Assembly (NCBI RefSeq): GCF_000092105.1
Contig: NC_014148.1
Coordinates: 3,900,001 to 3,932,000 of the forward strand
Source of the DNA: Planctopirus limnophila DSM 3776
Lineage (GTDB): Bacteria > Planctomycetota > Planctomycetia > Planctomycetales > Planctomycetaceae
Reading direction: 5' to 3'
Length of the DNA stretch: 32,000 nt
Shown piece after piece: positions 4,317 through 24,174 of the stretch. The position numbers and the translations under genes are program-made. The notes under the pieces were generated by a model. It ran no database searches. It worked only from the letters and a program-made list of their open reading frames with translations, and had not been told where the DNA came from. Within the stretch, counting starts at the first letter, position 1. Each line of letters starts with the position of its first letter.

Positions 4317-5666
4317 ATGCCCTCTTTTCTGCACGTAGCCGACCTGCATCTCGACAGTCCGAGAAGTGGACTTTCCCGCGATGCCAGTGCCCCGGTTTCT
4401 GAAATTCAGCAGGCTCCTCGCAGAGCACTCGAGCGATTGATTGACGAAGCCTTAAGGCGAAAGGTTTCCGCAGTCGTGATTGCTGGCGATCTTTACGATG
4501 GCGACTGGAAAGACCACCAGACGGGTCTCTTCTTCGTGAGGCAGGCCCAGAAGCTGGCCGACGCCAGGATCCCGGTGGTGATGATCACCGGCAATCACGA
4601 TGCCCAGTCAGTCATCACCCAGCAGCTTCCTTTACCCCCCAACGTGAAAGTTTTAAGTGTCGATGCACCCGAGACATTCCTGCTCGAGGATTGCGGTCTG
4701 GCACTGCATGGGCAAGGTTTCAAGAACCGGGCCGTGCCGCAGAATCTGTCGGCGAACTATCCCGCTAAAATCAACAGCCTCTTGAACATAGGGCTCCTGC
4801 ATACGTCGCTGACAGGCTTCGAAGGGCACGAAGTTTATGCCCCCTGCAGCTTGAGCGATCTGGCCCGGACCGGCTACGAATACTGGGCCTTAGGCCATAT
4901 TCATAAGCGGCAGGAATTTCCTCTGGCCAGTGGCGGGATGGCGGTTTTTCCAGGAAATCTGCAGGGGCGCCATATTCGTGAATGCGGGCCCAAAGGCTGC
5001 GAAATCATCGAGTATCAACCGAATGGAATTCTCCAGCGAGAGTCAATTGTCCTCGATGTCTTTCGTTGGGAACTGCTTTCGATTTCAGTGGACGGATTAT
5101 CTTCCCGAGACGAAATTCTCGCACTGATTGAAGATCACCTGCGCGCTTTTCGCACTTCCGCAGATCCCCAACCACATGCCCTGCGCATCGAACTGATGGG
5201 GGCCACAACTTGTCATGGTCAGCTCATCGACCGCCAGCGGGAACTTCGTGCCGAAATTCAGAGCCTGGTGGTACAGTCAGGAAGTGGCAACTGGTGGCTC
5301 GAAGACCTTTCGCTCCGCACAACTTTTCCAGAGGCATCCATCGATGCCGCTTTGACCAGTGCTGCCTCTCAGGAATTGCTGGCATTGGCCCGGTCGGAAC
5401 TGCAGGCAGCCCATTCCTCTCCCGAACTGCATCGTCTGATGCAAAACCTGACTGAGGATTTGCGGAAGAAGCTCCCTGCGGAAATCTCGTGGAGTGATGT
5501 CCTTGGCCCCACCTCTTCGCACGCTGCAGGCTCTACGACAAACCAGGCATCAACTAATGCTGGAATCGAGTGGAGTCCACTCCTGGAAGAATCTTTAGCA
5601 CTTCTTTCGGCTCGGTTGGAGCAGCCCCAGACACAAGTCTCCACAGGTCGAAAGGGGCGGTCATGA
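4317..5666 (+). CDS. SbcD/Mre11-family metallophosphoesterase (YhaO/SbcF-like DNA exonuclease subunit)
   Basis: Calcineurin-like phosphoesterase motifs in canonical order: VADLHLD, AGDLYDG, TGNHD, GLLH, GHIH. The stop overlaps the start of the next gene (ATGA at 5663-5666). Confidence 0.85.
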   Translation: MPSFLHVADLHLDSPRSGLSRDASAPVSEIQQAPRRALERLIDEALRRKVSAVVIAGDLYDGDWKDHQTGLFFVRQAQKLADARIPVVMITGNHDAQSVITQQLPLPPNVKVLSVDAPETFLLEDCGLALHGQGFKNRAVPQNLSANYPAKINSLLNIGLLHTSLTGFEGHEVYAPCSLSDLARTGYEYWALGHIHKRQEFPLASGGMAVFPGNLQGRHIRECGPKGCEIIEYQPNGILQRESIVLDVFRWELLSISVDGLSSRDEILALIEDHLRAFRTSADPQPHALRIELMGATTCHGQLIDRQRELRAEIQSLVVQSGSGNWWLEDLSLRTTFPEASIDAALTSAASQELLALARSELQAAHSSPELHRLMQNLTEDLRKKLPAEISWSDVLGPTSSHAAGSTTNQASTNAGIEWSPLLEESLALLSARLEQPQTQVSTGRKGRS

Positions 5667-8600: not shown

Positions 8601-9220
8601 CGCGCCTGGAAGCCGCCCGCCTGGCATTGGCAGGCATGAGTGGAGAATCGAAAGCGGCGGAATTGAATGAAGAAGCCAGTGATCTTCGCCGGCTGATTAT
8701 ACAGGATAGCCGGGAGTATCTGCGATTAGTGACTGCCGCCGAGCTCTTGCGATCCGCGATCAAAACCTATCGAGAGCAGCATCAGGGGCCGGTCTTTGCC
8801 CTGGCTGCGTCGATCTTTACACGCATGACGGGCGGTGTGTTTGAAGGTTTGCAGATTGATTCCGAGGATGGTTCTCAAGAACTGCTGGTGCGTTGTCACG
8901 ATGGGCGCACGCTGCGAGTGACTGAACTTTCGACAGGCACCGCCGACCAGCTCTTTCTGGCCATCCGGCTGGCGTGGATTGAAGAGTACCTGCATCAGCA
9001 CCCCCCCTTCCCGCTGGTGCTGGATGATGTGCTGGTGCAGTTCGATGATGAGCGCACGCGTTATGCCCTGGAGGTGCTGGGAGAACTCTCTCGCCGCACT
9101 CAAATCCTGTGCTTCACGCATCATGAACACCTCAAGGAACTGGTCGAACAGACGCTGGAACCCGACCAATACGAGATCCACTCCCTCCAGCGCCTTCGCA
9201 CACCTCCTTTCAAGAGCTGA
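5663..9220 (+). CDS. SMC/Rad50-like AAA ATPase with long coiled coil (YhaN/SbcE-like), 1185 aa
   Basis: I prefer the internal ATG at 5663 (MRIASLHLENVGPF...) because it overlaps the upstream stop as ATGA and sits just before the N-terminal Walker A GPNEAGKST. About 900 aa of heptad-like Q/E/L-rich sequence follows. The C-terminal end has an ABC signature-like LSTGTADQL, Walker B LVLDDVLVQFDD and H-loop FTHH. Confidence 0.85.
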   Translation: MRIASLHLENVGPFRKTTWNLDPSRGFQLFIGPNEAGKSTALRALADALYGFPHTLPDGESFQPYRDRRVGLSLISDDGQQLRFLRRKATKQALRGLDDKTVVDEAELSRWLQQVDRTRFEQFFGLDHARLVQGGNELLNSKGDIGTILFAGSQLQGAPQILEALSQEAASLFAPRAQNPPINSQIRQHADLIAKVNQLMVKPQAWRDVQTEFDQASTTKDKLQSQLKELEKRVSHLARLNAACTPARQLRQIRQQLKSYADLPMLDEEFFEKVETVRQKIFSAAHEQRVKLDELQQLKSTLDQLPPVESIWLEHESTIRELVETRGSIQKARKDTPKVQKELLLAKARQQTILDQWKWAPADQSASIPRRLRRELEALQAEWLVLSERKKALTDRAQALAKTTARIASEPVDRRETLRQELAKTQATLQTAASLLEADQKIRTLRISQTTLERNVAQAWQKLEPQTLMSQWAEAHTLSEQIALLSSTNIPPHDVIEQFREEIDTWHQQVLSAVAALEKARLEQSHAIEERQRLRTLILQATPEDLAAARSERDQLWAKFQQQLESEPRPDHQQLIEQAQIVQQSIQQADQLADALFKQATNVYRDQELALRTEQLSTSIQQLQERLTTQKDLESQAVHRWENLWSSTGISPRSPREMLVWSRMAHELIELGEKLAAINDELTAHDQQCEIFCHQFDTSQSIESDAPEPQPLPTIHARLKIDDQNLLERIRAADLLELDRQRLNDDQTAYQHDLEAWQSTSQEWELRWKAAILATGWEESTTPDELAELLEQFQLLEQTQNSIQKLEERLSGMAEDESTFQEQIFDFVRTSIPLEAENLIASFPPVELSQAIETRQNSARVQQAQYQQQQATIERLTAAVEQLGDALELAQEQLNQALRQARLKEPSELTALREKCRLRRKLIDDAVHHELELARQCGTNSVEELIQQALEVDPATLPPEIESLGQEISSLREQLGQATARLEAARLALAGMSGESKAAELNEEASDLRRLIIQDSREYLRLVTAAELLRSAIKTYREQHQGPVFALAASIFTRMTGGVFEGLQIDSEDGSQELLVRCHDGRTLRVTELSTGTADQLFLAIRLAWIEEYLHQHPPFPLVLDDVLVQFDDERTRYALEVLGELSRRTQILCFTHHEHLKELVEQTLEPDQYEIHSLQRLRTPPFKS

Positions 9221-9254: not shown

Positions 9255-9413
9255 ATAGAGATTCCAATACGTGAACCTGTCGCTCAGTCCGAGTTGGTGG
9301 GTTGCGCAAAGCCTTACCCCACCCTGATTGCCGCTATGAGAAAGCTCCTGACCATCCTCAACGCCATGATTAAAAATCAAACCCCATGGAAAAATCCCGC
9401 ACCAACAGCTTGA
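9255..9413 (+). pseudogene. C-terminal remnant of an IS110-family transposase
   Basis: My own translation of the frame ending at TGA 9411-9413 gives ...LVGCAKPYPTLIAAMRKLLTILNAMIKNQTPWKNPAPTA*. The (A/C)MRKLLTILNAM..(Q/G)TPW tail is the characteristic C-terminus of IS110/IS1111 transposases. An in-frame stop at 9252-9254 leaves only about 50 codons, so it is a fragment. Confidence 0.6.
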
Positions 9414-9559
9414 TTCTCAAGACAGTCGCTACCTGTCTATTCTTACGCGAAGGCGCGAAGATCTCGAAGGAATGGCGACAACGTGTGGGTGCCTCCAGCG
9501 AAAACATGCCCGGTCATTTCATGCTGCAGTTCAGCATGCATTTAGCTGCCTGAATGGAA

Positions 9560-9587
9560 TTGACAGCGAAAACCCACAAGATAACCT
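9560..9587 (+). promoter_or_regulatory. Candidate sigma70-like promoter for the TIR gene
   Basis: TTGACA (9560-9565), 16-nt spacer, TAACCT (9582-9587), about 45 nt upstream of the ATG at 9632. The -10 element matches TATAAT at only 3 of 6 positions, and promoter rules for this lineage are uncertain. Confidence 0.25.
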
Positions 9588-9631
9588 AAACGCTGTTCAC
9601 TTAGATAAGATTTTAACGTTTGGGAAAGGCA

Positions 9632-10603
9632 ATGAATTCAGCCAATCGAAAGAAGGTCGCAGTAATCACTTCATATGTTCAGCAATCATTTTCCGAAAGT
9701 GATTGGTACGCGATTGGGCAGCTTACAGGTCAACTCAACACAATCTCAGGTCACTCGAGGCTCTTGCGAGCGTTGAATTTTGGAGACGACGACTATTCTG
9801 GTTGCGCAGCGGAAGTTCTTGACAGAATCTTCTCCGCAAATGAATCGGCCATTGATGAGGTGATCGACCACTTCGACATCGACCTTTGGTACCAGCAGAA
9901 AAGTCCTGAAAAGTACAACAGACTGTTCTCCGCCGCGGCCTCGTCCTCTGCGGACTTTTGGAAAAGTGGTTTTCTTAAGTTATTCGTTAGCCATCTTTCA
10001 TCCAATAAGACTCGAATGTCTGCACTCAAAGCTGGGCTGGCGACTTGGGGAATTTCAGCCTTCATCGCACACGAAGATATCGAGGCATCTCGTGAATGGA
10101 GGGATGAAGTCGAAGCCGGCTTGGAAACGATGGATGTGCTTGCGGCCGTCGTAGAACCAGGATTCAAGGAATCAGATTGGTGCGTACAAGAGGTCGGTTA
10201 CGCCCTAGGCCGCAAAATCGATGTAATTCCACTACGAGCAGGATTAGACCCTTTTGGTTTCTTTGGAAAGTTTCAAGGAATTCAGATCAAAGGGCGACTT
10301 CCCGAGCAGGTGGCATGCGATATTACACAAGTTCTTCTCAAGAAACCTCAATATAGAGAGAGGCTCATCCAAAGCATATCAATAGCCTTTTCAACACTGG
10401 CTTCCGAGAAAAAGATCGAAAATATTAACACGCTAGACGAATGGTCGATTCTTACCGACATTCAGTTGAAAACTGTGGTCGAGCAAGCCGCGATGTCAGG
10501 GGCTGAGAAGCAAGCGGCGAAGAATCTGATCGCTCGCATTGGAGCATTCAAAGCAGCAGAAGTCGAAGTCAACCTGCCTGACGACGATGACATTCCGTTT
10601 TGA
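9632..10603 (+). CDS. TIR-domain protein (ThsB-like candidate) with unassigned N- and C-terminal regions
   Basis: Central region LFVSHLSSNKTRMSALKAGLATWGISAFIAHEDIEASREWRDEVEAGLETMDVLAAVVEPGFKESDWCVQEVGYALGRKIDVIPL fits the bacterial TIR pattern (F-[IV]-S-[HY]...; F.D.dI..g..W...I; then S.WC..E). The candidate catalytic Glu is in WCVQE (codon 10190-10192). I prefer the ATG at 9632, preceded by GGAAAGG, over the TTG at 9620. Confidence 0.75.
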   Translation: MNSANRKKVAVITSYVQQSFSESDWYAIGQLTGQLNTISGHSRLLRALNFGDDDYSGCAAEVLDRIFSANESAIDEVIDHFDIDLWYQQKSPEKYNRLFSAAASSSADFWKSGFLKLFVSHLSSNKTRMSALKAGLATWGISAFIAHEDIEASREWRDEVEAGLETMDVLAAVVEPGFKESDWCVQEVGYALGRKIDVIPLRAGLDPFGFFGKFQGIQIKGRLPEQVACDITQVLLKKPQYRERLIQSISIAFSTLASEKKIENINTLDEWSILTDIQLKTVVEQAAMSGAEKQAAKNLIARIGAFKAAEVEVNLPDDDDIPF

Positions 10604-10754
10604 CAGCGAAGCGAATCACGTTGAGTGGAATACGATAGTTTCAATTGGCGGCGTATCGCTGGTCACTGGAATTAAATAGCGGACGGCATCTAAGTTTTTT
10701 GCGATCCATCCAAATGAGAATTCTCTTCTAAGAAATGCAAAGGTATTTGAACAT

Positions 10755-12080
10755 ATGGCGGAGCGCAGACATCGTTTTGAAGGCTTGGTGCCAGAAATGC
10801 TCATACAGAGTATCCGCGATCATCGGTGCGTGCTTTTCGCTGGCGCCGGGATGTCAGCCCAAGCTCAAACTCAAGACGGCACACGCCTCCCGACTTGGAG
10901 TGCTCTGCTCGAGCGAATGCTGAACTGGTGTATCGATCATCGAGTTCCACTTCGGGCTGATCCAGCAGAGTTCAAAGAGGTACTGAAGCGTGGGAGGTTG
11001 CTCGTTGTTGCTCAAGAACTTCAGCAGAGTCTCGGTAGCCAGCTAAACACTTGCTTGTCAGCAATTCTCCATACCGGCAAGACAACACCAAGTGAAGCAC
11101 ATCGTTTGGTATCGAGAATTGATTGGGTTGCTGCGCTTTCGTCTAACTATGATGGACTGATTGAAGGGGCCTATGCACTTGAAACTGGTGGCATCGTCCC
11201 ACCAGTTTTCTCTCCTGCCGGAATTGGTCAGGCTCTCGATTGCCTTCGAAGTAACCGCTTCTTCGTCTTGAAAGTGCATGGCGATGTCAATCTCCCCGGC
11301 TCAATAGTGTTAAGCAACCGAGACTATTCAAGACTTCTATATTTGAGCCCCGGCTACCGATCTTTTCTTGAATCTATCTTTTCAAACTATACCGTTCTAT
11401 TTGTAGGATTTGGCGGGAATGATCCAGATCTTGATGGAATAGTGGATAGACTATCCACAATCTACGAACATAGTATCGGACAGCACTTCATATTGATTTC
11501 TGAGGATGAATTTACTGCGCTCGAACGTAGGCGTCTACTTGAAGACAAGCGCCTAGACTGCATTACGTATCGACGGGATGCCTCACATTCACAAGTCGTC
11601 GAATTTCTTTGGGCGCTGTCACAGCGGTTAACTTCAAAGGCAGTCGTTAACACGCCGTTTGCTAAAGACGAGAACAAACAACGCGCGTTCATATCTGGGA
11701 GTTCTCGACAAATAGGCATGCTTCGCGAAGTGGCCGAGATAGCAAGGCAGGTAGGCTTTGATGTGTGGTACTCCGAGACAGAGATCGCTGTGGGCGATCG
11801 TTTGGTTGATGTGATCGCCAAGTGTATCGACGAGGCGGACTGTTTCATTGTTATTCTGTCAAAAGAGTCAGGGGAGTCTTCTTGGGTTCACTTTGAAATC
11901 GGCAGGGCCTTTGGAGCGCACAAAAAGGTGTTTCCAATCCGCATTGGTGATGCTCCTGTACCCTCAGACCTGATGAACGTTGTCTACCTGCAAGTCAGCG
12001 AGCCACCATTTAACGCTGAAGATAAAGAAAAAATCATGATGAACCTGGCGAGATTTCTTAAGCCCACGAAATCTAGCTAG
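10755..12080 (+). CDS. SIR2-family (SIR2_2-like) NADase domain fused to a C-terminal TIR domain
   Basis: N-terminal part: CVLFAGAGMS (Rossmann glycine loop), LPTWSALL, SSNYDGLIE (Asn131, codon 11145-11147), VLKVHGDV (His175, codon 11277-11279) and LFVGFGGNDPDLD, which are the defining motifs of ThsA/DSR-type prokaryotic SIR2 domains. C-terminal aa ~310-415: RAFISGSS...GFDVWYSETEIAVGDRLVDVI...ADCFIVILSKESGESSWVHFEIG, a TIR pattern with the conserved Glu381 (codon 11895-11897). Confidence 0.8.
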   Translation: MAERRHRFEGLVPEMLIQSIRDHRCVLFAGAGMSAQAQTQDGTRLPTWSALLERMLNWCIDHRVPLRADPAEFKEVLKRGRLLVVAQELQQSLGSQLNTCLSAILHTGKTTPSEAHRLVSRIDWVAALSSNYDGLIEGAYALETGGIVPPVFSPAGIGQALDCLRSNRFFVLKVHGDVNLPGSIVLSNRDYSRLLYLSPGYRSFLESIFSNYTVLFVGFGGNDPDLDGIVDRLSTIYEHSIGQHFILISEDEFTALERRRLLEDKRLDCITYRRDASHSQVVEFLWALSQRLTSKAVVNTPFAKDENKQRAFISGSSRQIGMLREVAEIARQVGFDVWYSETEIAVGDRLVDVIAKCIDEADCFIVILSKESGESSWVHFEIGRAFGAHKKVFPIRIGDAPVPSDLMNVVYLQVSEPPFNAEDKEKIMMNLARFLKPTKSS

Positions 12081-12283
12081 GCACTCACCTTCCGCGTCAG
12101 GCCCACCGCTCGCTTCCCACACTCCCTTGAACTCCACCGTCTTGACGCAACATCCCATCCAGCCAACCCGTGGCATTCCGCTTGCCGAGTACGATATACT
12201 TGGTCTTTCTGAACGGATTGTCATGATGGGCTGAGCGTCTGTTGGTCGTGTTCGCAGTGGCGGGATGGTCACGGGAGGGGAGC

Positions 12284-14629: not shown

Positions 14630-14801
14630 ATCAGAAGGATTCACGATTGCTGTGGATTGGCGTTAAGACGAATTCTTGCGCTGACCGTGGGTGAAGAATT
14701 CCTCCCACTTGAGGCGTCACTGGTCATTTGGCTGAAAAATCGTCAACGTAAAGCAGAGAAGTTTCTCATGTTTTACGCTGTCCATCTGCCAATGGTTGAC
14801 C

Positions 14802-16727
14802 ATGAGTCGTCCTGCTGAATCGCCTACTCCCGAAGAAATCTCGCCGGTCTTTCGACTGAGTGACAAGACCACGCTCTTCCCGGTCATTCACGAGAGCGGT
14901 GATTTCTCCGTCGCTATTCGCCGGTTTTTACTACACCACAGCTTCGATTGCCTCGCTGTGCCGCTGCCACCTTCCTTTGCCGAAGCTGTCGAGCAGGCCA
15001 TTCTGCAATTGCCTTCGGTTTCGATTGTCCTGCAGCGGGAAACCGCCATTCCGACTGTGAGATCGTGGACACCACCTGCTGAGACGCGGGATGACGATGA
15101 ACAGCCGGAATTTTTTACCCGTGCCGCCAGCTATGTGCCGGTTGAACCTTGCCAACCAGTCATTGCCGCTCTTCGTGCAGCCATGGAAGAACGGATTCCC
15201 CGGGCATTCATCGACCTCGAAACCGATCACTTTGAATGTCATACCGCCGTCTATCCCGATCCTTACTCACTCAAGCATACGACTCCTGAAGCGTTTGCTG
15301 CAGCCATTCTCCCTGCGATTCCTCCACCACCGGGAGAACAAGCCTACGCCCGCATTCATACCATGGCTCATCGCCTGCACGAACTCGAACAGCGGTACAA
15401 CTCGATTCTCTGTATCTGCTCGCTGACAGATTGGCCATGGATTCGCAAAGCGTACCAGGATCGCCTCCCCCAAGTGACAGACGACCAGGTGGAATCGGTC
15501 GAAACGTTTGCAGTCACTCCGGAAACACTACATTTCATGATGGGTGAGCTGCCCTATATCACCGGTCTTTATGAGCGGGCACGAGCCGAGTTGGAATCCG
15601 ATGAGAACCTGAGCATCGACGGCGTCAAAACCATGCTGCTCGCGACACGCGATGAATATCGCGAAGACCTGGGTTCCCGCGCACGCAAGATTACCCCTAA
15701 GCTTCTCAAGACGTACTTTCAGTATGTCCGTAATCTCACACTGATTCAGAAACATCTCACTCCTTCGCTCTATACGCTGATCTCAGCGGCTCAGCAGATT
15801 GCTGGAGATCTGTTTGCCGTGCAACTGGCCGATGTGGCTCAGCAGTACGGCTATCCACCTCTGGACGGTGTTCCCCCTTTGCGCATGGGCATCAATAAAG
15901 CCGCCCTGCCGGATGGAACTTTCTATGGCATGAAAACGCGTCTGCCTGGTCAGACCCGGGTCTGGTGTACCCTAAAGCTCACACCCAAGCCACCTCAACT
16001 CCAGCAGCAGGATTGGCAGTCGCGATGGAATCCATTTCGCCAGTGCAGCTGGCCACCAGAAGATCTGGCGATCGAGAAATTCCGCACGCATATCAAGGAT
16101 TCTGCAATCGCGTTAATGGGTGCTGATCTGGCCCGCAGTGAAAAGTTCACAACCAGTTTGAAGGATGGTCTCGATATGCGCGAGACGCTTCGCAACTGGC
16201 ATTCGGGAGAGTTGTATGTTCGTATTAATCCGCCCGCCCGCGGGAATCTCGATTGCGTGATTATGCTGTTTGATTCCCCCGCCGACCCGCGCACTTATCC
16301 CTGGCGGGTGACGTGGCATGCCGAGCATCACGATGAATCGACGCTTTCACTCTTTGCGACCGATTACCGCGCCAGTATGCAAGGCCCGGGGATTGGCATG
16401 GCGACTTATGGCGGTGCCATGTTTTTATTTCCGCCCCGGCCGATTCCCGATATCTGGCGGTCGAGGCATTTCGATCATGCCGACACTCTTGAAGAGCGGT
16501 TGATTATGGCGGCTTGTCATTACTCGCGGGAAAAGCATATCGCCATGCTCAGCCCCCTTCCCCCCGGGTTGGCATGGAAGAAGATTGCCCAGCGCTACGG
16601 CAAAAAACTGATCCACCTGCCCCTTTCGAGATTCAGCCAGGAGACAATCGAAAAGCTCCGCGTCTTCCATGTACTTAATGGAACCAGCGTTCGCAGCTAC
16701 GCCGCTCATTTTATCCGCAAAGGCTGA
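14802..16727 (+). CDS. Large conserved hypothetical protein, 641 aa; N-terminus is TraB/GumN- or DUF5682-like by pattern only
   Basis: Long uninterrupted ORF with protein-like composition. The N-terminal TLFPVIHESGDFSVAIRRFLLHHSFDCLAVPLPPSF and later IPRAFIDLE resemble the H-containing strand, helix and 'PD-vvavE' layout of TraB/DUF5682 families. No catalytic assignment is possible. I prefer the ATG at 14802 over the TTG at 14796. Confidence 0.7.
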   Translation: MSRPAESPTPEEISPVFRLSDKTTLFPVIHESGDFSVAIRRFLLHHSFDCLAVPLPPSFAEAVEQAILQLPSVSIVLQRETAIPTVRSWTPPAETRDDDEQPEFFTRAASYVPVEPCQPVIAALRAAMEERIPRAFIDLETDHFECHTAVYPDPYSLKHTTPEAFAAAILPAIPPPPGEQAYARIHTMAHRLHELEQRYNSILCICSLTDWPWIRKAYQDRLPQVTDDQVESVETFAVTPETLHFMMGELPYITGLYERARAELESDENLSIDGVKTMLLATRDEYREDLGSRARKITPKLLKTYFQYVRNLTLIQKHLTPSLYTLISAAQQIAGDLFAVQLADVAQQYGYPPLDGVPPLRMGINKAALPDGTFYGMKTRLPGQTRVWCTLKLTPKPPQLQQQDWQSRWNPFRQCSWPPEDLAIEKFRTHIKDSAIALMGADLARSEKFTTSLKDGLDMRETLRNWHSGELYVRINPPARGNLDCVIMLFDSPADPRTYPWRVTWHAEHHDESTLSLFATDYRASMQGPGIGMATYGGAMFLFPPRPIPDIWRSRHFDHADTLEERLIMAACHYSREKHIAMLSPLPPGLAWKKIAQRYGKKLIHLPLSRFSQETIEKLRVFHVLNGTSVRSYAAHFIRKG

Positions 16728-17066
16728 ACTTACCCCAGTCGCTATTATGTCCCAGAGAAGTCAGGCCCTTCGTTGAAGCGCAGGTCGGCCTGATGTGCTA
16801 CTTTTGTCGCTTGAAGCGAATATCTCAGGCGATCTTCGTTCAACGTTTCTAAGCAAGACATCACAATCGCTCATTATTTTCTTTCCCGTATACTTCTGAT
16901 ACACCTTTCAATACCCGAGCATCACTCATTCGTCGTAAGATTTCGAGAATGTCATACCAATCCATTGAACCACATCTTCGTACCGACCACAGCGGTGCCA
17001 ATCGAGATTAATCAGGAAGAACGCGTTGAGACTTCTTGAGACAAACACTATTTCACGAATTATTAC

Positions 17067-18566
17067 TTATCGATAGATCTGGCAGATCCTAAGCAGACAC
17101 AACAGAGGGTCGTCCGCTGAAAGTTTATCTATCCGTTCTATAACCTCTGAATCAATTGGAACACAATCCTTGAGAACATTAAGAACCTGGAAATACTCTA
17201 ACTGTTGGTACAGGCAGAATCTCAGTAATCGAAAACGAAGTGACTGATAATAAAAATGCCACGATTTCAGTCCAGAACGAAGCACTGGGTCACGAATGAG
17301 ATGGCGACGGATCTCATCACCATCCAGAGCAATGTAATGACCACACTTACTTAACCACAGTTGTTCAATTTTGACTTTTATCGCCTGAAACCAAATAGTC
17401 CCCTTATCCCGCAATATTTCCAGACATAGAAGCGTATCCTGCGGATTAATCAATAACTGTAATAGAAGTTCGTCAACCATTTCATTCTGGAGCGTCTCAT
17501 TCTCGTATTCCATTTCAAAAGCGACTTTAAGGCACATTCGGCATAGAGATCGAACGGATTGTGATGCCTTCACGATAGATGGGTTCGTGAAACTCAGTTG
17601 CTCAGAGCTTATAAGAAGACAATCTGCACGATCCAAAAGATGATCACCATAAAACCCACTAACAGTAAACTCACTCAGAGCACTTTTACAGTGTTGAATA
17701 AGCTCGTCTTTCTGAACTGGTTCATAAACAATCAACATCTCCAATAAACAGACAATGATAGCTAACCAATAAGAACAGTCATCCACAAGCATTTCATCAA
17801 GTCGATGAAACTCTTGAATAACTATTTCGTCTTGATCCCTCTTAAAATACAACTGCCATCGCACTCGCAGAAGCTGTGTTTGAAGTGTACGAAACGCAGG
17901 ATCCAATATCAGCTTCCAAAAATCTCTTCCTGTGGTTAATTCGGGGTGATTCGAACACTCCCTCGTCAACAGCCGTTGAGACTGTAAGCTCAAGCCATAC
18001 TTCAATGCATAACTCAACAGCAGATTCAGAGATGTCGTCGATGAATCTAAATGCGGCTGAAGCGTCAGCAACCAGTATCTTTGCAGCATCTCCCGCTCAA
18101 TATGAGGATGAGTCAGACTTCTTCGCGAAAGAACTTCGTAAGCAAGATCGACTTTCCCGGATTTCGCCAATTGCCACGGATCACTATCAAGACATGACAG
18201 ATATGAATGATCTGCGTCCTTGACAGAAGCTTCCATACCTCTAAAAGCATCTTTTGAATCACACTCAAGGATAACTTCATCTTTAAATGGACGAATCATA
18301 TCAGGAGTCTGCATTTGCTCGCCGAGAAGAAGAGCAAAATCGTCTGATCGTTTTTTCGCATCAGCATAGGGAAGAAGTACCTCATACGCCTTCCGAATCT
18401 TCTGAAAGGCCTCAGCGTCGATTTCAGGCCGAAACCGCTTAATCAGCTTTGAATAGACCCGCTTTAGATCACCACTTGAAAATGATCGTCCCATCCCCAT
18501 TAACTCCCAGGGATTTTCTGGCCACTTCGAGAAATCATCAGGGAGCGAGTGAGCATCGGTACCCAT
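17067..18566 (-). CDS. J-domain-like protein, module 2 (HPD replaced by RPE), DjlB/DjlC-like size
   Basis: N-terminal NPWELMGMGRSFSSGDLKRVYSKLIKRFRPEIDAEAFQKIRKAYEVL aligns to DnaJ helices I-III (DYYEILGV...IRKAYKRLAMKYHPD...FKEIKEAYEVL), with RPE (18423-18431) at the HPD position. About 430 aa of helical C-terminal region is homologous to the paralog at 19767-21272 (EREMLQRYWLLTL, DPWQLAK and others). I prefer the ATG at 18566 over the GTG at 18578. Confidence 0.8.
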   Translation of the reverse strand: MGTDAHSLPDDFSKWPENPWELMGMGRSFSSGDLKRVYSKLIKRFRPEIDAEAFQKIRKAYEVLLPYADAKKRSDDFALLLGEQMQTPDMIRPFKDEVILECDSKDAFRGMEASVKDADHSYLSCLDSDPWQLAKSGKVDLAYEVLSRRSLTHPHIEREMLQRYWLLTLQPHLDSSTTSLNLLLSYALKYGLSLQSQRLLTRECSNHPELTTGRDFWKLILDPAFRTLQTQLLRVRWQLYFKRDQDEIVIQEFHRLDEMLVDDCSYWLAIIVCLLEMLIVYEPVQKDELIQHCKSALSEFTVSGFYGDHLLDRADCLLISSEQLSFTNPSIVKASQSVRSLCRMCLKVAFEMEYENETLQNEMVDELLLQLLINPQDTLLCLEILRDKGTIWFQAIKVKIEQLWLSKCGHYIALDGDEIRRHLIRDPVLRSGLKSWHFYYQSLRFRLLRFCLYQQLEYFQVLNVLKDCVPIDSEVIERIDKLSADDPLLCLLRICQIYR

Positions 18567-18665
18567 TATTACCTGCACGCCAGAGGCACCATCACATTAC
18601 GAAAACACAAACTAACTGCACCATACTGACACTAAGACTTGAACCACTATCAATCTGGGAAAGGA

Positions 18666-19472
18666 TCAACAAAGCCAGATAAACAGTACCGAACCTGCCA
18701 ACAAAATGATCGCAACAAAAACAACACAAGTCTTACTTACTACAAACTCCTTTTTGCGATGAGTCCAGGTGCCCCCCCATTCCGGATCAATGACATCAGG
18801 AAAATATTTGCGATGCCAATGGCTTGGATTGTCCGAATGTAATAACTCGCCAAACCAGTCTCCACCAAGCGATGCGAGCTTCGGATCAATCCTTCTCAAC
18901 TTTTGCGACTCAGCCTGCCACTCCATCGGCTTATCAAAGAATACATCGATTTTCTTGCGATAGAAGTCCCCCTTCTCGGTGGGCCACGTGACATACGAAT
19001 TCAGGATACATTTGCCCAAATACTTGAGGTGCACTGATCCGAGATGATTGATTTCAGAGTTGATATCGAGCCCGCGTTCAAGATGTTCCAGCAGTCGCTT
19101 CAAGCGTAGGTGTGGCTGACACAAAGGCCTCAACCGCTCATACTCCCGTTTACGATCCTTCGGAGGGTAACCTAAATAGCGAGAAAAGAAACTGCGAAGT
19201 TCCACCTCAACCTGGGCTTCATTGAGCTGCTCCCAGTGCGATCGATCAGTCGGCGTCCATAATGTCTCCGGCTTTCCCGCCAGATACTTAACGGCATGAT
19301 CTAATGCCTCATTACTTGTAAATCCAGATTTCTCCAACGCGCTTAAAGCAACGGCTTGTATATCATCCACTTCCGCTCCTGTTTCCAGGCCCAGAACAGA
19401 CCTCCCCCAGGCGAGATGGTGCTCATCGATCACAAAATTGTCTCTGGTTTCAGGTAGAGGATCGTTATCCAT
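18666..19472 (-). CDS. Tail-anchored hypothetical protein, module 2 (paralog of 21404-22210)
   Basis: 268 aa. A soluble, mostly helical body is followed by a single C-terminal TM helix (CVVFVAIILLAGSVLFIWLC) at the extreme end. Roughly half the residues are identical to the module-1 copy (AVKYLAG.PETLW, EYERL.PLC.PH.RLKRLL.HLERGL, TWPTEKG.FYR.KI, DP.LASLGG.WF.ELL). Confidence 0.75.
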   Translation of the reverse strand: MDNDPLPETRDNFVIDEHHLAWGRSVLGLETGAEVDDIQAVALSALEKSGFTSNEALDHAVKYLAGKPETLWTPTDRSHWEQLNEAQVEVELRSFFSRYLGYPPKDRKREYERLRPLCQPHLRLKRLLEHLERGLDINSEINHLGSVHLKYLGKCILNSYVTWPTEKGDFYRKKIDVFFDKPMEWQAESQKLRRIDPKLASLGGDWFGELLHSDNPSHWHRKYFPDVIDPEWGGTWTHRKKEFVVSKTCVVFVAIILLAGSVLFIWLC

Positions 19473-19766
19473 TCTGATGAACTTTCATGAATCGATAATT
19501 GAGATTGCTTTCAGCAAAGAACACTCCGACATGATTCCTTATACTATTACCTCAACTTCCCTCATCGCGCTGGTAAGTTTGTTGTCCACTCAACAAGGTT
19601 CTAGATTGCATTTTTTATAAAACTTACTGATCGTTGGGACTCTTTAACACTTTTCTACTTCACTCCCCGTAGTGTACCCTGCATTCAAGCTACATTACAA
19701 TCCGATAAATAGCGGCATATTCCCCATCATATAAGCTTGAGAAGACGATCATCGACAGGGCTCTTT

Positions 19767-21272
19767 CTAAATACCGATCTGACATGCCTGAACCAGGCTG
19801 CGCAGGGGTTTATCTTTGAGCAACATGTCGGCCCGGGGTGTTGTCGCTTTATTGGAGATTTCGATCATCTGCAGTACAGGGACCAGTTTTGTCATGTCAA
19901 TACAGTGCACGAGACAGAATCGCAGGACGCGTCCTCGCAATGAGTTGTAGCTGAATTGCGATGCGGACATCAGACCCATAAGAACCGTATCGCGCTGGGC
20001 CTCGCTTTTCAGTCCCTCAAATTCAAGGGCTTCGTACTGTGAATATTCTTCATACCAGAGTTGATAGATCGCTTGACTGAGTATCTGCAGCCAGGGTGCA
20101 CCTTTTTTCAACAGCTCATCCAGGCACATCAGTGAACTCTGCGGGTGATTCACAATCTGATCGATCAGTGGCAACAAAATCTCCCGCCTGCGCGGGCTTT
20201 CGATATGTTCCAACTCAGTAGCGACCTCCAGACAGCGACGATAAAGAAAACGGATCGATTTAGAGGTTCTGACGAGTGATGAAGGCGAGCGAAAGAAGTC
20301 ATGGTAATTCGATATCAGATAGTCTGCCCGATCAAACAATTCCTGTTGATGAACCCCTTGTGATTCCAATTCTTTCAGAAGGGTCTGGCAGCGGTCAAAC
20401 ATCGGCTGACGCAAACGGGGATGATAGACCACCACCAGTTCCAGCAGTTGGATCACAATCGTTAACCATTGAGCAGGATCGTCGAAATACTGCGATTCCA
20501 GTTCTTCAAACTCCTGCAGCACAACTTCATCGCCGTCGTCTTTGAGAAGCCCTTTCCACCTCAGACGTAACAACGAGAGACGGAAACTCTGGTTGTAGCG
20601 GCCTGAGATCAGCTTCCAGATCTGGTTTTTCATCGCCAGTTCCGGCCGGTTCGACACTTCAGCCAAGAGCAATCGCTCCACCTCATCACTCAATCGATAA
20701 GTGATGGCGAAATTCAGAAGTTGATCATAGGCCGTTGTCGAACGATCCAGCTCGGGATGAAGTGTCAGCAACCAGTAGCGCTGCAGCATTTCCCGCTCAA
20801 AATGAGGTCTCGTAAAACGTCTTCTGGCAAGTTCGGCATACGCCTTCTCATATTCACCCGCCTTCGCCAGTTGCCACGGATCGACATCTCGGTGAGCCTG
20901 CCGCCGATGGTGGGATCTCTGGGATGATGATTCATGTCCCGCGTCGTCATGTTCAGGAGTCTCGGCCGAATGATCTTCTGCCGAAGTGCCATCATCCTCG
21001 ACGGATTTCTCATCCGTTGTTTGAAGATGATTCCATATCAGATGGGCCACGGCGGCAGTGTCCGCATCGGCATCGGCGTAATGCTGCAAGGTTTCATACG
21101 CCTGCCTGACTTTTTGAAATGCTTCCGGTGCCGATTCGGGGCGATATCGTTTAATTAACCGCGAGTACGCCAGCTTTAACTCTTTTTTGGTAAATGATCT
21201 TTCCATCCCCAGAATCCGCCAGGGATCTTGAGGCCATTGGGAAACATCGTCCGGTAAAGAGTCCATATTCAT
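19767..21272 (-). CDS. J-domain-like protein, module 1 (HPD replaced by RPE), DjlB/DjlC-like size
   Basis: N-terminal DPWRILGMERSFTKKELKLAYSRLIKRYRPESAPEAFQKVRQAYETL has a J-domain helix II, loop and helix III pattern, with RPE (21135-21143; I verified the codons cgc ccc gaa on the minus strand). An acidic, His-rich linker is followed by a helical domain homologous to 17067-18566. Confidence 0.8.
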   Translation of the reverse strand: MNMDSLPDDVSQWPQDPWRILGMERSFTKKELKLAYSRLIKRYRPESAPEAFQKVRQAYETLQHYADADADTAAVAHLIWNHLQTTDEKSVEDDGTSAEDHSAETPEHDDAGHESSSQRSHHRRQAHRDVDPWQLAKAGEYEKAYAELARRRFTRPHFEREMLQRYWLLTLHPELDRSTTAYDQLLNFAITYRLSDEVERLLLAEVSNRPELAMKNQIWKLISGRYNQSFRLSLLRLRWKGLLKDDGDEVVLQEFEELESQYFDDPAQWLTIVIQLLELVVVYHPRLRQPMFDRCQTLLKELESQGVHQQELFDRADYLISNYHDFFRSPSSLVRTSKSIRFLYRRCLEVATELEHIESPRRREILLPLIDQIVNHPQSSLMCLDELLKKGAPWLQILSQAIYQLWYEEYSQYEALEFEGLKSEAQRDTVLMGLMSASQFSYNSLRGRVLRFCLVHCIDMTKLVPVLQMIEISNKATTPRADMLLKDKPLRSLVQACQIGI

Positions 21273-21403
21273 CAGTGATTTCAGTTGAATTGTTGTGAAT
21301 CGTCTTTACACGATCTGCCATAACTATATAGATCGCCGATCAATCTTCGCAGATCATTGTTTATCGAATTGTTATCATTCGACAGCACTCCTTGATGCGT
21401 CAG

Positions 21404-22210
21404 CTAGCGATTGATCAATACGGAAATCAGACTGATAACAAACAGGATCGCGGTGATCAGGCAGCCCCATTGATCAAAAAACGAAGCTTTTTGGGGTGTG
21501 ACCCACTGTAGCCCGGTATCTTTCTCTGCCAGATCTGGAAAGTGCATGCGGTACCAGTAGTGAGGATCCTGGATGTTGAGTAACTCCTGAAACCAGTTGC
21601 CTCCCAGAGAAGCCAGCCTGGGGTCTTGTCTTTTCAACATCTGCGCAGCAGCATGCCATTCGTTCGCTCGATCAAAGAGAACTACGATTTTCTCTCGATA
21701 GAAATGTCCCTTTTCGGTAGGCCAGGTGGTATAGGATCGGAGAATACAATCGCCCAGATACCGCTGATACTCTGTTCCCACATGATCGACATTGAGGCTG
21801 AGATTCAGCCCACGCTCAAGATGGTTCAGCAGACGTTTCAGTCGCGGATGAGGTTCGCACAAGGGCTTGAGCCTCTCGTACTCATGCTTTCTCAATTGCG
21901 GCGGAAGGCTGTAGTAGCGGCTGTAAAATTTACGAAGGACCTGCTCGGTTTCTTTTTCCGTGAGCTGCTGGGAATGTGCGTGGTCTGCGGCTGTCCATAA
22001 TGTCTCCGGCCCGCCCGCCAGATATTTCACGGCTCGGTCAAAATCGGCATGCCCTTCAAAATCGGCGGTTTCCAGAGTTTTTAAGGCCCGGGTCGCGCAG
22101 ACGGTGGCATCGAGGGAGGGTTCCAGATCGAGGTAATTTCTTGCCCAGGCTCGATGATGCTCTTCCACCTGCAGGCTCTTACTCGTCGGATGGAGAGGTT
22201 CCGTAGTCAC
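21404..22210 (-). CDS. Tail-anchored hypothetical protein, module 1 (paralog of 18666-19472)
   Basis: The track ORF runs to 22312, but that N-terminal extension lies inside the Hsp70 gene. The in-frame GTG at 22210 gives 269 aa and aligns residue-for-residue with the 268-aa paralog (His18-His19 in both). C-terminal TM helix CLITAILFVISLISVLI. An alternative GTG start lies at 22168. Confidence 0.72.
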   Translation of the reverse strand: MTTEPLHPTSKSLQVEEHHRAWARNYLDLEPSLDATVCATRALKTLETADFEGHADFDRAVKYLAGGPETLWTAADHAHSQQLTEKETEQVLRKFYSRYYSLPPQLRKHEYERLKPLCEPHPRLKRLLNHLERGLNLSLNVDHVGTEYQRYLGDCILRSYTTWPTEKGHFYREKIVVLFDRANEWHAAAQMLKRQDPRLASLGGNWFQELLNIQDPHYWYRMHFPDLAEKDTGLQWVTPQKASFFDQWGCLITAILFVISLISVLINR

Positions 22211-23933
22211 CTTGTTCGCCTTCAAAGGAATCGAATGCCTTGAGAAATGCTCCCAGTTCTTCAGCAAAGAGTTTGATCTGTGCCTGATCCTGAGATTCCA
22301 GTACCTCTTCAAACCCCGTGATCAGTTGATCCAGGCGGTTTCGCTCACGATGGGGAAGTTCCATATAGAGTCGCTCGGCCCATTTAAGCAGTAGCCGGTT
22401 CTCTTCTTCATCGCGAGGATGAGCCTTTAAAGCCTGCATCTTATCGAGAGCCGTTTTCATCTGACTTTCGCTCAGATTTTTCATATGGCGGGTAAAGACC
22501 TGAGTGGCCCGCTTTTGTGTCTTCACAATCACCGCTTCGGCTTCGAGAATGCCATTGAGGTCATAAGTGAATCGAATATCAATTTCCTGTCCAGGTGGGC
22601 CGGGGGGAATACCAGTGACTTCGAAAGAACCCAATAGCTGGTTGTCTTTGACCAATCGGGATTCACCCTGATAGACCGAAACATTCACTTTGGATTGATT
22701 GGCCACACGGGTGGCCACGCGTTCGACCCGGCTGACAGGAATGGTTGTATTGCGATTGATGATCGGCAGGTAATAACCATCCCGATCTTCGCCACCAATT
22801 TCACGACAGATCTCCACGCCCATGGTAAAGGGAGCGACATCGGTCACGACAATTTCGGAAAGGCTCTCATGCCGATCCAGAATCCCGGCATTGACGGCGG
22901 CACCTAAAGCGACCACTTCATCGGGATTGATGGTGCAGCGTGTGGGTCTTTCGAACAGCTCTTCAATACGTTTAATAAGACTCGGCATGCGAGACGCACC
23001 GCCTGCCAGAATGACTTCGTCGATCTCCTGCCGTTTCAGCCCGGCATCGCCTAGCGCCCTGCGGATCGGGCTTAAAATGCGATCCAGCGTCGGTTTCGTC
23101 CAGAGGTCGAACATTTCCCGTGTGATCGCATAACGCGGTGCATCGGGCTCGATTTCTCCCTGACTGTTCGGCAGGCGAACTTCTGTTGACGCTTCATTTG
23201 TCAACCGGCGTTTGGCCTGTTCGCATTCCCGACGTAAGCGAGAAACTCGCAGTGGCTCCTGCATTTCGGTGTGTTCGAACTTCATCCCGGCCTGATTGAG
23301 AATCTGGGAGACACAGGCGTCGGTGAAATCTTCTCCACCCAAAAAGATCTCGCCGGCTGAAGCACGAATTTCAAGCACACCTTCAAACATTTCGACAATT
23401 GAAACGTCAAACGTGCCGCCACCTAAGTCGATAATCACGGCTGTCTTTTGAGAATCGGCTTCATGGAGACCGTACGCTATGGCTGCAGCCGTGGGCTCGT
23501 TGACAATCCGTTCAACCTTGAGACCTGCCATCTGACCGGCAGCAATCGTCGCTCGCCTCTGCTCTTCATTAAAGTAGGCAGGGACGGTAATCACAGCCGA
23601 CGTTACGGCTTCGCCCAGATAATGCTCGGCATCAGCGACCAGCGATCGAAGCACACAACTGGACAGATCGATCGCCGACATCTTGCGGCCAGCCAGAGTC
23701 ACGCTCCAGTCACTTCCCATGTAGCGTTTGAAAACGCTCGCGCAAAGATCCGGATGTGAGACCTGATACTCTTTGGCCGTCATTCCGACCAGCAGATGCT
23801 CGCCTTCAACCCCCACAACAGAAGGAGTCAGTTTCTGGCCAAGTGAATTCGGGATGAGCTTCGGGCCATCCGCCTCCATAATGGCAATGAGTGAATTGGT
23901 CGTTCCCAGATCAATGCCAACAATGCGACTCAT
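22179..23933 (-). CDS. hscC: Hsp70-family chaperone, HscC-type (584 aa, short C-terminal lid, no EEVD)
   Basis: GIDLGTTNSLIA (phosphate-1), FKRYMGS (catalytic Lys region), NEPTAAAIAYGLH, IDLGGGTFDVS (phosphate-2), FLGGEDFT, ILAGGASRMP (adenosine motif), SBD VTDVAPFTMGVEI, ERNTTIPVSRVE and VYQGE. Length and motif variants match my recollection of E. coli HscC rather than DnaK or HscA. The gene symbol is by family resemblance only. Confidence 0.9.
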   Translation of the reverse strand: MSRIVGIDLGTTNSLIAIMEADGPKLIPNSLGQKLTPSVVGVEGEHLLVGMTAKEYQVSHPDLCASVFKRYMGSDWSVTLAGRKMSAIDLSSCVLRSLVADAEHYLGEAVTSAVITVPAYFNEEQRRATIAAGQMAGLKVERIVNEPTAAAIAYGLHEADSQKTAVIIDLGGGTFDVSIVEMFEGVLEIRASAGEIFLGGEDFTDACVSQILNQAGMKFEHTEMQEPLRVSRLRRECEQAKRRLTNEASTEVRLPNSQGEIEPDAPRYAITREMFDLWTKPTLDRILSPIRRALGDAGLKRQEIDEVILAGGASRMPSLIKRIEELFERPTRCTINPDEVVALGAAVNAGILDRHESLSEIVVTDVAPFTMGVEICREIGGEDRDGYYLPIINRNTTIPVSRVERVATRVANQSKVNVSVYQGESRLVKDNQLLGSFEVTGIPPGPPGQEIDIRFTYDLNGILEAEAVIVKTQKRATQVFTRHMKNLSESQMKTALDKMQALKAHPRDEEENRLLLKWAERLYMELPHRERNRLDQLITGFEEVLESQDQAQIKLFAEELGAFLKAFDSFEGEQGDYGTSPSDE

Positions 23934-24174
23934 ATCGTCTCTATCTGATCCTGTCAGTACTCACCACAGCCTTGAATCTCACGAGATTCTGCGGCAAAGG
24001 ACACACCGGCAGGCAACAGGTTCCAGAAGAAACCGTGTCCCAAAGTCGACTGGCGACTGACCCTGCGCCCACTTGTTACTTGAGGCTAATCTTCAGAGAA
24101 CGGTCATCGCAAGATGCTTTTGATTCCTCTGGCCTGGAAGTTGAACTCCAGCGGTAGGCGGGATGCGGTTGAAA

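Follow-up and report, generated by a model that had tools for sequence, protein, structure and literature searches.

What does a specialised Hsp70 chaperone do with two paralogous pairs of partner genes encoded directly behind it? This question is raised by a five-gene operon of Planctopirus limnophila DSM 3776, which we studied within a stretch of 32,000 nucleotides (nt) of contig NC_014148.1 (positions 3,900,001 to 3,932,000 of the forward strand; hereafter the window, numbered from its first letter). A first-pass annotation, made from the sequence alone, had read the operon as an HscC-type Hsp70 gene followed by two diverged copies of a two-gene module, each encoding a small protein with a C-terminal membrane segment (X1 and X2) and an atypical J protein (J1 and J2). 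Our own reading, to which we assign a probability of about one in two, is that the operon encodes a dedicated, membrane-tethered HscC machine specific to the Planctomycetota, with a translationally coupled Hsp70-X-J operon as its core. The features discussed below are these:

22179-23933, minus strand: Hsp70 gene, HscC-type, 584 amino acids (aa), Pfam HSP70 match at E 4.6e-141
21404-22210, minus strand: X1, 268 aa from a GTG start, predicted tail-anchored member of the X family
21413-21469, minus strand: C-terminal transmembrane segment of X1, residues 248-266 of 268, Kyte-Doolittle mean over 19 residues 2.61
19767-21272, minus strand: J1, 501 aa, with an LPDD-WP motif, a J-domain, a disordered linker (77-128) and an alpha-solenoid (130-501)
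21135-21143, minus strand: RPE triad of J1 at the HPD (His-Pro-Asp) position, residues 44-46, read from the sequence
19473-19766, minus strand: spacer between J1 and X2, 294 nt, GC 0.40, left part of the module-2 indel
18666-19472, minus strand: X2 (Plim_3024), 268 aa, predicted tail-anchored paralogue in the X family
18669-18725, minus strand: C-terminal transmembrane segment of X2, residues 250-268 of 268, Kyte-Doolittle mean 2.9
17067-18566, minus strand: J2, 499 aa counted from an ATG, J-domain paralogue of J1
18423-18431, minus strand: RPE triad of J2, residues 46-48, from the sequence and the family alignment
16728-19770, strand not assigned: module-2 segment (X2, J2 and spacers), 3,043 nt, a presence/absence polymorphism among Planctopirus genomes
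23934-24174, minus strand: region upstream of the Hsp70 gene, presumed promoter region, 241 nt

We found all five open reading frames (ORFs) where the first-pass annotation had placed them, in the minus-strand order Hsp70-X1-J1-X2-J2. X1 and X2 are paralogues (47% identical over 266 aa, E 2e-91), as are J1 and J2 (41% identical over 495 aa, E 1e-126), and the two-gene X-J module occurs twice behind one Hsp70. The C-terminal transmembrane segment proposed for X1 was likewise found, but the length first given for the protein, 269 aa, was not. The mechanical ORF list runs X1 out to a TTG codon (302 aa); translation from the GTG at 22210 gives 268 aa, with an N terminus that aligns residue for residue with those of X2 and the P. 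hydrillae orthologue and a start that overlaps the end of the Hsp70 gene by 32 nt. For J2, an alternative GTG four codons upstream of the ATG (18578) would yield 503 aa.

The five genes are already present in public records, but they are annotated there only generically. The Hsp70 is identical to ADG68849.1/WP_013111280.1, which RefSeq names 'molecular chaperone HscC'; X2 is listed as Plim_3024, 'hypothetical protein', and J1 as 'J domain-containing protein'. A literature search found no mention of Plim_3023 to Plim_3027 in papers. In addition, the public records disagree over J1: GenBank ADG68847.1 and the Logan gene call give a protein of 479 aa that starts 22 codons too late, and RefSeq WP_041401932.1 has the 501-aa form. 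The late start removes helix I of the J-domain together with an LPDD/WP motif that is invariant in the family; because the 501-aa form contains both, we take it to be the correct one.

We aligned the window Hsp70 and its planctomycete relatives with DnaK, HscA and HscC of Escherichia coli. The HscC subfamily is defined by three indels relative to other Hsp70s (PMC8215388). A deletion in lobe I of the nucleotide-binding domain (DnaK residues ~76-101; alignment columns 182-205) is present in the window Hsp70, in all planctomycete relatives and in E. coli HscC. Loop L1,2 of the beta substrate-binding domain carries an 8-residue insertion (REIGGEDR), at a place where E. coli HscC has 4 extra residues and DnaK and HscA have none. 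Finally, a gap of 11 columns in lid helix B (columns 644-654) is common to the window protein and E. coli HscC and is not found in DnaK or HscA; the published sizes are about nine residues for the helix B deletion and 4-8 residues for the L1,2 insertion (PMC8215388). The overall identities follow the same ranking, with 40-42% to E. coli HscC, 36% to DnaK and 33% to HscA. Together with the RefSeq name of the identical protein, these results demonstrate that the Hsp70 is HscC-type, as the first-pass annotation had it.

The residues through which an Hsp70 would meet a J-domain are also in place. R167, N170, E171, T173, E206, E217 and P419 are conserved in 9/9 Hsp70s of the family, and Q378 is kept in 7/9, with Asn in both Planctopirus proteins. 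In DnaK, roles in J-domain contact have been described for R167, P419 and L391 (PMC8215388).

The proposal of a dedicated system had been tied in advance to a simple expectation, that X and J genes should lie beside HscC-type Hsp70 genes in other genomes as well. This is what we found: the arrangement Hsp70-X-J occurs in 10 of 12 informative loci. Loci in which it recurs are listed here.

L010, P. hydrillae: Hsp70-X-J
L011/L017, Planctomyces metagenome-assembled genome (MAG): gene order as in the window
L012 and L014, two Pirellulales MAGs: Hsp70-X-J
L015, Gemmataceae MAG: Hsp70-X-J
L003, Planctomycetota MAG: Hsp70-X-X-J
L025, MAG, assembly GCA_031374655.1: Hsp70-X-J-X
L004, L021 and L027, metagenome contigs: Hsp70-X-J

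The Hsp70 and X genes overlap by 32 nt in the window and by 4-23 nt elsewhere, and X and J overlap by 4 nt in L004, L008, L012 and L024; overlaps of this kind suggest translational coupling. The flanking genes differ in each lineage and include those for a nonribosomal peptide synthetase (NRPS) with an ABC exporter, a polyprenyl synthetase, a BamB-like protein, a dehydrogenase, a Tad pilus, a DUF1501 protein and PhoD. Since these flanks are unrelated between lineages, the conserved unit is the Hsp70-X-J trio. Every genome that carries a taxonomic label belongs to the Planctomycetota.

As a separate observation, genes for a terminal NRPS module (C-A-T-TE) and an ABC exporter stand immediately ahead of the Hsp70-X-X-J operon of L003 (464-6021), on its strand. 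No gap exceeds 28 nt, and these genes and the operon may be co-transcribed.

The small partner, X, has no counterpart in the curated collections: X1 and X2 gave no match in Pfam (E <= 0.1), NCBIfam or PADLOC. The first-pass annotation had suggested DUF1266, the family of the small proteins YbeR and YbeU encoded next to E. coli hscC, and we found no basis for this. X1 and X2 did not match DUF1266, none of 53 family members had a notable match to any Pfam model (E <= 1), and hhalign against YbeR/YbeU returned a probability of 0.1%, although YbeR and YbeU themselves match DUF1266 (PF06889) at E 1e-45. X1 is 89% identical to its P. hydrillae orthologue and scores 236 bits with the hidden Markov model (HMM) of the X family. 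Word-index searches for X and J returned 1, 5 and 5 hits, among them for X only the near-identical orthologue. An exhaustive profile search recovered at least 155 X-family representatives of 50% identity clusters at E <= 1e-3, 17 of them at E <= 1e-10. As far as sequence comparison goes, X is thus a family without a curated entry that can be defined by its gene context.

All members of this family share the N-terminal ~200 residues. Exactly one transmembrane-like segment, beginning at about residue 240 and thus after the conserved domain, is present in 123 of the 150 listed representatives; the tail that follows it has a median length of 101 residues and is rich in proline and charged residues in the homologues that we read. 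Basic residues precede the segment in X homologues, so the conserved domain is probably cytoplasmic. The Planctopirus proteins are a tail-less form of this design and are therefore predicted to be tail-anchored, with 19-residue Kyte-Doolittle means of 2.6-2.9 for the C-terminal segments of X1 and X2. In contrast, a hydropathy scan found no terminal hydrophobic segment in J1 or J2, and the J proteins have no credible transmembrane segment; a single weak candidate in J2 lies inside the confidently folded solenoid. The membrane anchor thus sits on the small partner and not on the J protein, as the first-pass annotation had noted.

The AlphaFold2 (AF2) model of X2 is confident (mean predicted local distance difference test score, pLDDT, 87.9) and all-alpha, with a domain of ~210 aa and a terminal helix at 238-267. 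A Foldseek search of the Protein Data Bank (PDB) with this model gave no significant match (best E 0.5, TM-score <= 0.2), and no PDB sequence match to X was found. We did note that an X consensus, 'WA..LGL...A.....R.A.L..L...DFVP' (X2 residues 14-65; window ~19278-19433), mimics the register of J-domain helix I, helix II and loop. The idea that the N terminus of X is a degenerate J-like domain found no support: hhalign did align it with the beginning of the J-domain in the J family, but at a probability of 0.4%, the Foldseek match to a J-domain had E 2.2, and no X member matched Pfam DnaJ.

The second partner, J, is recognisable as a J-domain protein, but one whose signature triad is altered. 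Pfam DnaJ (PF00226) matches J1 with 30.7 bits, above the cut-off of 27.8, and J2 with 23.8 bits, below it; the matches cover model positions 1-54 of 63 in J1 and 2-59 of 63 in J2, with helix IV partly unmatched. J2 nevertheless scores 672 bits with the HMM of the J family. A profile of the J family, built from 15 sequences, matches 60 solved J-domains (best E 5e-11) and aligns 'rfrPehaP' with 'kyHPDknP' of DNAJA1, placing Arg/Lys exactly on the His of HPD. Similarly, BLASTP aligned the RPE of J1 with the HPE of E. coli DjlC, in an alignment confined to residues 18-60. The non-canonical motif reported in the first-pass annotation is therefore real: the triad is RPE at residues 44-46 of J1 and 46-48 of J2, and neither protein carries the HPD triad that J-domain proteins have between helices II and III.

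The alteration extends across the family. In 14 non-redundant lineages the triad reads RPE, KPE, RPD, KPD or DPA: His occurs in none (0/14), Pro is invariant, the third position is acidic in 12 of the 14, and the basic residues of helix II are kept. The DPA form, which has neither the basic nor the acidic residue, belongs to the related J members of L008 (1833-3287) and L024 (5995-7464). A second signature, LPDDVxxWPxDP, is invariant and stands at the N terminus ahead of the J-domain. For comparison, DjlB and DjlC, the cognate J proteins of E. coli HscC, carry HPE, a variant found in ~1% of J-domains (PMC10410713). The survey that gave this figure dropped sequences without a full HPD (PMC10410713), and a family of J proteins lacking the histidine has for this reason probably gone unnoticed.

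In the AF2 model of J1 (built from 6 sequences; pLDDT 79.8), the J-domain has a long helix III and is followed by an acidic, His-rich and disordered linker at 77-128 and an alpha-solenoid of ~370 aa at 130-501. Foldseek returned only generic TPR/ARM/HEAT-like matches for J1 (best E 0.028), and a family-profile search found no PDB sequence match to the C-terminal ~370 residues. An alpha-solenoid is a typical protein-binding scaffold.

From these elements we propose the following working model. X would be a bitopic or tail-anchored protein of the inner membrane, its ~210-aa helical domain facing the cytoplasm. J would be a soluble class-C protein whose solenoid docks on the cytoplasmic domain of X or on clients presented there. 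The [RK]-P-[ED] J-domain would engage the R167/linker/P419 surface of its cognate Hsp70 and induce it to hydrolyse ATP at the membrane. In the duplicated state, one Hsp70 would be served by two X-J adaptor pairs, presumably differing in specificity or localisation.

Several points weigh against this reading. In every system tested, changing the His of HPD to Gln abolishes the stimulation of ATPase activity (PMC8215388); the R/K-P-E J-domain may for that reason be inactive or regulatory and not stimulatory. Next, the X-J pair can exist apart from the Hsp70 gene, as three loci indicate. In L024, an X-J pair with the DPA triad lies in 13 kb devoid of an Hsp70 gene; L008 likewise combines X-J with DPA, and its 0.7 kb of upstream sequence leaves no room for a directly upstream Hsp70 gene; and L016 (7989-9506; a Thermoguttaceae MAG from goat duodenum) has an orphan J gene with RPE, directly downstream of a tyrosine recombinase. 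The orphan gene has a GC content of 0.39 against 0.47 for its locus, and neither an X nor an Hsp70 gene lies within 8 kb. The DPA sub-lineage of L008 and L024 may thus have become uncoupled from a dedicated Hsp70. In addition, the limit to Planctomycetota is provisional, as the taxonomic scan used one exact peptide pattern and covered 7 genome loci. Finally, X could be a client instead of an anchor.

The first of these points leads to a rival explanation, which we consider unlikely: that the J proteins are J-like regulators and not activators. They would bind Hsp70 or X without triggering ATP hydrolysis, in the manner of Pam16/Tim16, a J-like protein without HPD that tempers Pam18 at the mitochondrial import motor, and the Hsp70 would be activated by another J protein or work without one. 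The loss of His in all 14 lineages fits this explanation, as do the lethal effect of H-to-Q on stimulation in every system tested (PMC8215388), the incomplete Pfam match at helix IV and the sub-threshold score of J2. Against it, the Pro is invariant, the third position is acidic in 12 of 14 lineages, the basic residues of helix II are kept, and the Hsp70 conserves the partner residues R167, P419, E206 and E217. Moreover, none of the operons encodes a canonical HPD J protein, the strict Hsp70-X-J synteny argues for a working partnership, and Arg/Lys could, we infer, take over from His33 as donor of a hydrogen bond to the linker backbone. Stimulation of the Hsp70 by J would thus be part of our working model, and is its least certain step.

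How does this operon relate to known Hsp70 systems? The closest parallel is the one named in the first-pass annotation, and its description of E. coli was accurate: the pairs ybeR-djlB and ybeU-djlC adjoin hscC, with a 4-nt overlap within each pair. In both organisms there is one HscC-type Hsp70 gene and two paralogous pairs, with the small gene first (~235-270 aa) and the J protein second (~480-500 aa); the E. coli paralogues are 59% and 51% identical. In both, the triad is a variant ending in Glu, HPE there and RPE here. The E. coli HscC system is targeted to the membrane by a tail anchor (PMC8215388), which, however, sits on DjlB/DjlC there and on X here. The two systems differ further in that the small proteins are DUF1266 there and X is not, in that the His of the triad is kept there and replaced by Arg/Lys in the planctomycete J family, in that hscC is convergent there and all genes form one co-directional operon here, and in that the Sel1-repeat genes ybeQ/ybeT have no equivalent here. 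A kinship between the C-terminal part of J and that of DjlB/DjlC, which the first-pass annotation had raised, found no support: the J-domain is the sole region of similarity (hhalign probability 89% over 52 columns, with a DjlB/DjlC profile of 2 sequences only and hence limited sensitivity), and BLASTP likewise aligned nothing beyond it. Judged by gene order and domain content, the Planctopirus operon is a variant of the HscC/DjlB/DjlC arrangement whose partners lie outside the DUF1266 and DjlB/DjlC families.

Other systems offer looser parallels. In the mitochondrial import motor (mtHsp70, Pam18, Pam16), an Hsp70 is drawn to a membrane by a pair of partners, of which one is J-type without HPD and one is membrane-anchored. 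However, apart from the J fold the sequences are unrelated, the sole J-type domain here is the one without HPD, X has no significant similarity to a J-domain, and no translocon is encoded nearby. The E. coli DnaK-DjlA pair also brings Hsp70 activity to the inner membrane through a class-C J protein, but DjlA has an N-terminal transmembrane segment, a canonical HPD and housekeeping DnaK as its partner, whereas J here is soluble and paired with a dedicated HscC-type Hsp70. In HscA-HscB, of Fe-S cluster assembly, a specialised Hsp70 is likewise encoded together with a class-C J protein of its own, and its range of clients is presumably narrow; in contrast to HscA, the Hsp70 here lacks HscA features (the 33% identity given above), and no isc genes are nearby.

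Why are there two X-J pairs? In neighbour-joining (NJ) trees, J1 and J2 form sister clades, as do X1 and X2; in L003 and in L025, too, the two X copies group as sisters. The trees indicate that X and J were duplicated together, as one pair, within the Planctopirus lineage. Duplication of X or of X-J has occurred independently in three lineages, involving X alone in L003 and L025, and the co-duplication of X and J in Planctopirus fits a specific pairing of the two proteins. A distant origin of module 2 was ruled out by the same sister clades. J2 does resemble the orphan J of L016 at its N terminus, but the resemblance is confined to that end, with 20% identity over the whole protein.

Module 2 is nevertheless not present in every Planctopirus genome. 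In blastn comparisons, P. hydrillae JC280 and metagenome contig VFQR01004680 (L020) are collinear with the window up to 19771 and again from 16727; between these ends they have ~50 nt, compared with 3,043 nt in the window. The borders fall close to coding ends, with the J1 stop codon at 19767-19769 and 16727 being the stop of a convergent gene. The MAG JAIXUU01 (L017) carries the segment. The indel borders showed neither direct nor inverted repeats of any significance, and neither an integrase nor a transposase was found. Because module 2 is missing in P. hydrillae, it is dispensable. The paralogues J1/J2 and X1/X2 are saturated at synonymous sites, and the strains differ by synonymous divergences (dS) of 0.13-0.30, so the duplication must be much older than the split between strains. 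The simplest reading is that module 2 was lost in the P. hydrillae lineage.

The convergent gene at this border (14796-16727, plus strand) encodes a 643-aa protein with 99% aa identity between Planctopirus species and a ratio of nonsynonymous to synonymous divergence (dN/dS) of 0.014. It flanks the operon in one-module and two-module genomes alike, and its product gave no Pfam, NCBIfam, PADLOC or PHROG match.

The composition and the substitution rates of the operon set module 2 apart. The GC content at third codon positions (GC3) is 0.54 for the Hsp70 gene, 0.58 for X1, 0.55 for J1, 0.51 for X2 and 0.40 for J2, compared with 0.58-0.62 for neighbouring genes. The first-pass annotation had called the whole locus AT-rich; this holds for module 2 and the spacers (GC ~0.40) but not for Hsp70, X1 and J1. 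dN/dS is 0.02-0.04 for the Hsp70, 0.11-0.21 for X1, 0.13 for J1, 0.24 for X2 and 0.36 for J2, the last against the MAG orthologue. By these measures all five genes are intact and under purifying selection, which is most relaxed in module 2.

Might the second module, then, be a redundant and decaying duplicate with no separate role, and the pair of modules an accident of duplication? Its absence from P. hydrillae and a metagenomic relative, with clean junctions, would suit this explanation, as would the highest dN/dS (0.24 and 0.36) and lowest GC3 (0.51 and 0.40) of the locus and the J2 J-domain that falls below the Pfam cut-off. However, the X2 and J2 ORFs are full length in two genomes at dS 0.13-0.19, dN/dS is well below 1, and all of the family-invariant residues are retained in module 2 (LPDD, WP, the Pro of the triad, YWLLT, RW and FCL). 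In addition, the saturation of synonymous sites between the paralogues implies that the copy has long been retained. We consider decay improbable, and continue to favour two adaptor pairs that serve one Hsp70.

As the first-pass annotation had noted, the 241-nt upstream region has no CIRCE element and no sigma32-like site. CIRCE is missing from the whole window with up to 3 mismatches allowed, and the best sigma32-like match has mismatches at 6 of 14 positions. Because these consensus sequences come from other phyla, their absence is weak evidence against a housekeeping heat-shock role. The upstream region matched no Rfam family, and scans for sigma70 promoters and terminators, which included the J1-X2 spacer, gave nothing above shuffled sequences.

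The first-pass annotation had also suggested a stress or conflict system. The conflict idea received no direct support: X1, X2, J1 and J2 have no PADLOC match (PADLOC-DB v2), relatives among PHROGs or viral contigs were not found, and in other genomes unrelated housekeeping or metabolic genes lie on either side. The five genes thus show no defence, phage or heat-shock signature. The sole PADLOC match of the Hsp70, to PDC-M61B, is partial (residues 140-321, E 3.6e-8), and any Hsp70/actin-fold ATPase would be expected to give one.

Elsewhere in the window, a 2.8-kb segment at 9326-12161 (GC 0.48-0.50; ORFs 9620-10603 and 10755-12080, both plus strand) has no counterpart in the collinear contig of P. 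hydrillae. Its products are an AbiJ_NTD5-TIR protein and a SIR2-TIR protein, and the PADLOC matches are ThsA-like (E 1e-20) and ThsB-like. The segment resembles a strain-specific defence islet of Thoeris-like or NADase type, ~5 kb from the operon. Directly upstream of this insertion, 5570-9220 (plus strand) encodes a 1,216-aa ATPase of the AAA_27/AAA_23/SMC_N type with weak PADLOC matches to mad3, AriA and PtuA-type ATPases; it may be part of the same defence neighbourhood.

A further rival explanation, to which we give little credence, is that X is a regulated client or effector and not an anchor, with Hsp70 and J controlling how a single-pass membrane protein folds, oligomerises or inserts. 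X could then act as an envelope-stress signalling device or as an abortive-infection (conflict) module in which released X perturbs the membrane. In its favour, X and J evolve 3-10x faster than the Hsp70 (dN/dS 0.11-0.36 versus 0.02-0.04), and X/J paralogue expansions are recurrent and independent; module 2 is, moreover, a strain-level presence/absence polymorphism of atypical GC3, a TIR and SIR2-TIR insertion lies ~5 kb away, and the orphan J gene of L016 adjoins a tyrosine recombinase. Against these points stand the lack of any PADLOC family for X and J and the partial, generic Hsp70 match, the lack of PHROG or viral-contig relatives, and five genes without a nuclease, protease, NADase or other effector domain. 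The core trio is found amid unrelated metabolic genes in other genomes, X1 pairs most closely with X2 and J1 with J2 in the NJ trees, separate from all sampled homologues in other lineages, and Planctopirus X has no periplasmic part able to sense anything. Support for a conflict role is thus circumstantial, consisting of fast-evolving and expanding partners, an indel and the nearby TIR/SIR2 islet, and we favour X as the membrane anchor of the proposed machine.

To our knowledge, the E. coli system is the only HscC system that has been studied, and its role is unclear; the hscC phenotypes there concern Cd2+ and UV. The reappearance of one HscC with paired small-protein/J modules at the membrane in a distant phylum, where the partner domains are non-homologous, suggests that this architecture is functionally important. 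For chaperone specialists, the interest lies in a J family without the histidine that is co-encoded with its Hsp70 and with a new family of membrane partners: a co-encoded family with Arg/Lys in place of His is a natural experiment on the HPD rule, and X, an uncurated family modelled with confidence as all-alpha but without a structural match, has become definable through its gene context. P. limnophila DSM 3776, a type strain that can be cultivated and for which genetic tools have been published, allows direct tests of the predictions made here. If, as we tentatively consider possible, the [RK]-P-[ED] J-domains are fully active partners, this would be the first natural Hsp70/J family in which the His of HPD is replaced throughout; together with X it would form a planctomycete-specific machine acting on membrane-associated assemblies, in which the solenoid serves as a platform for clients or adaptors and duplicated X-J pairs retarget a single Hsp70.

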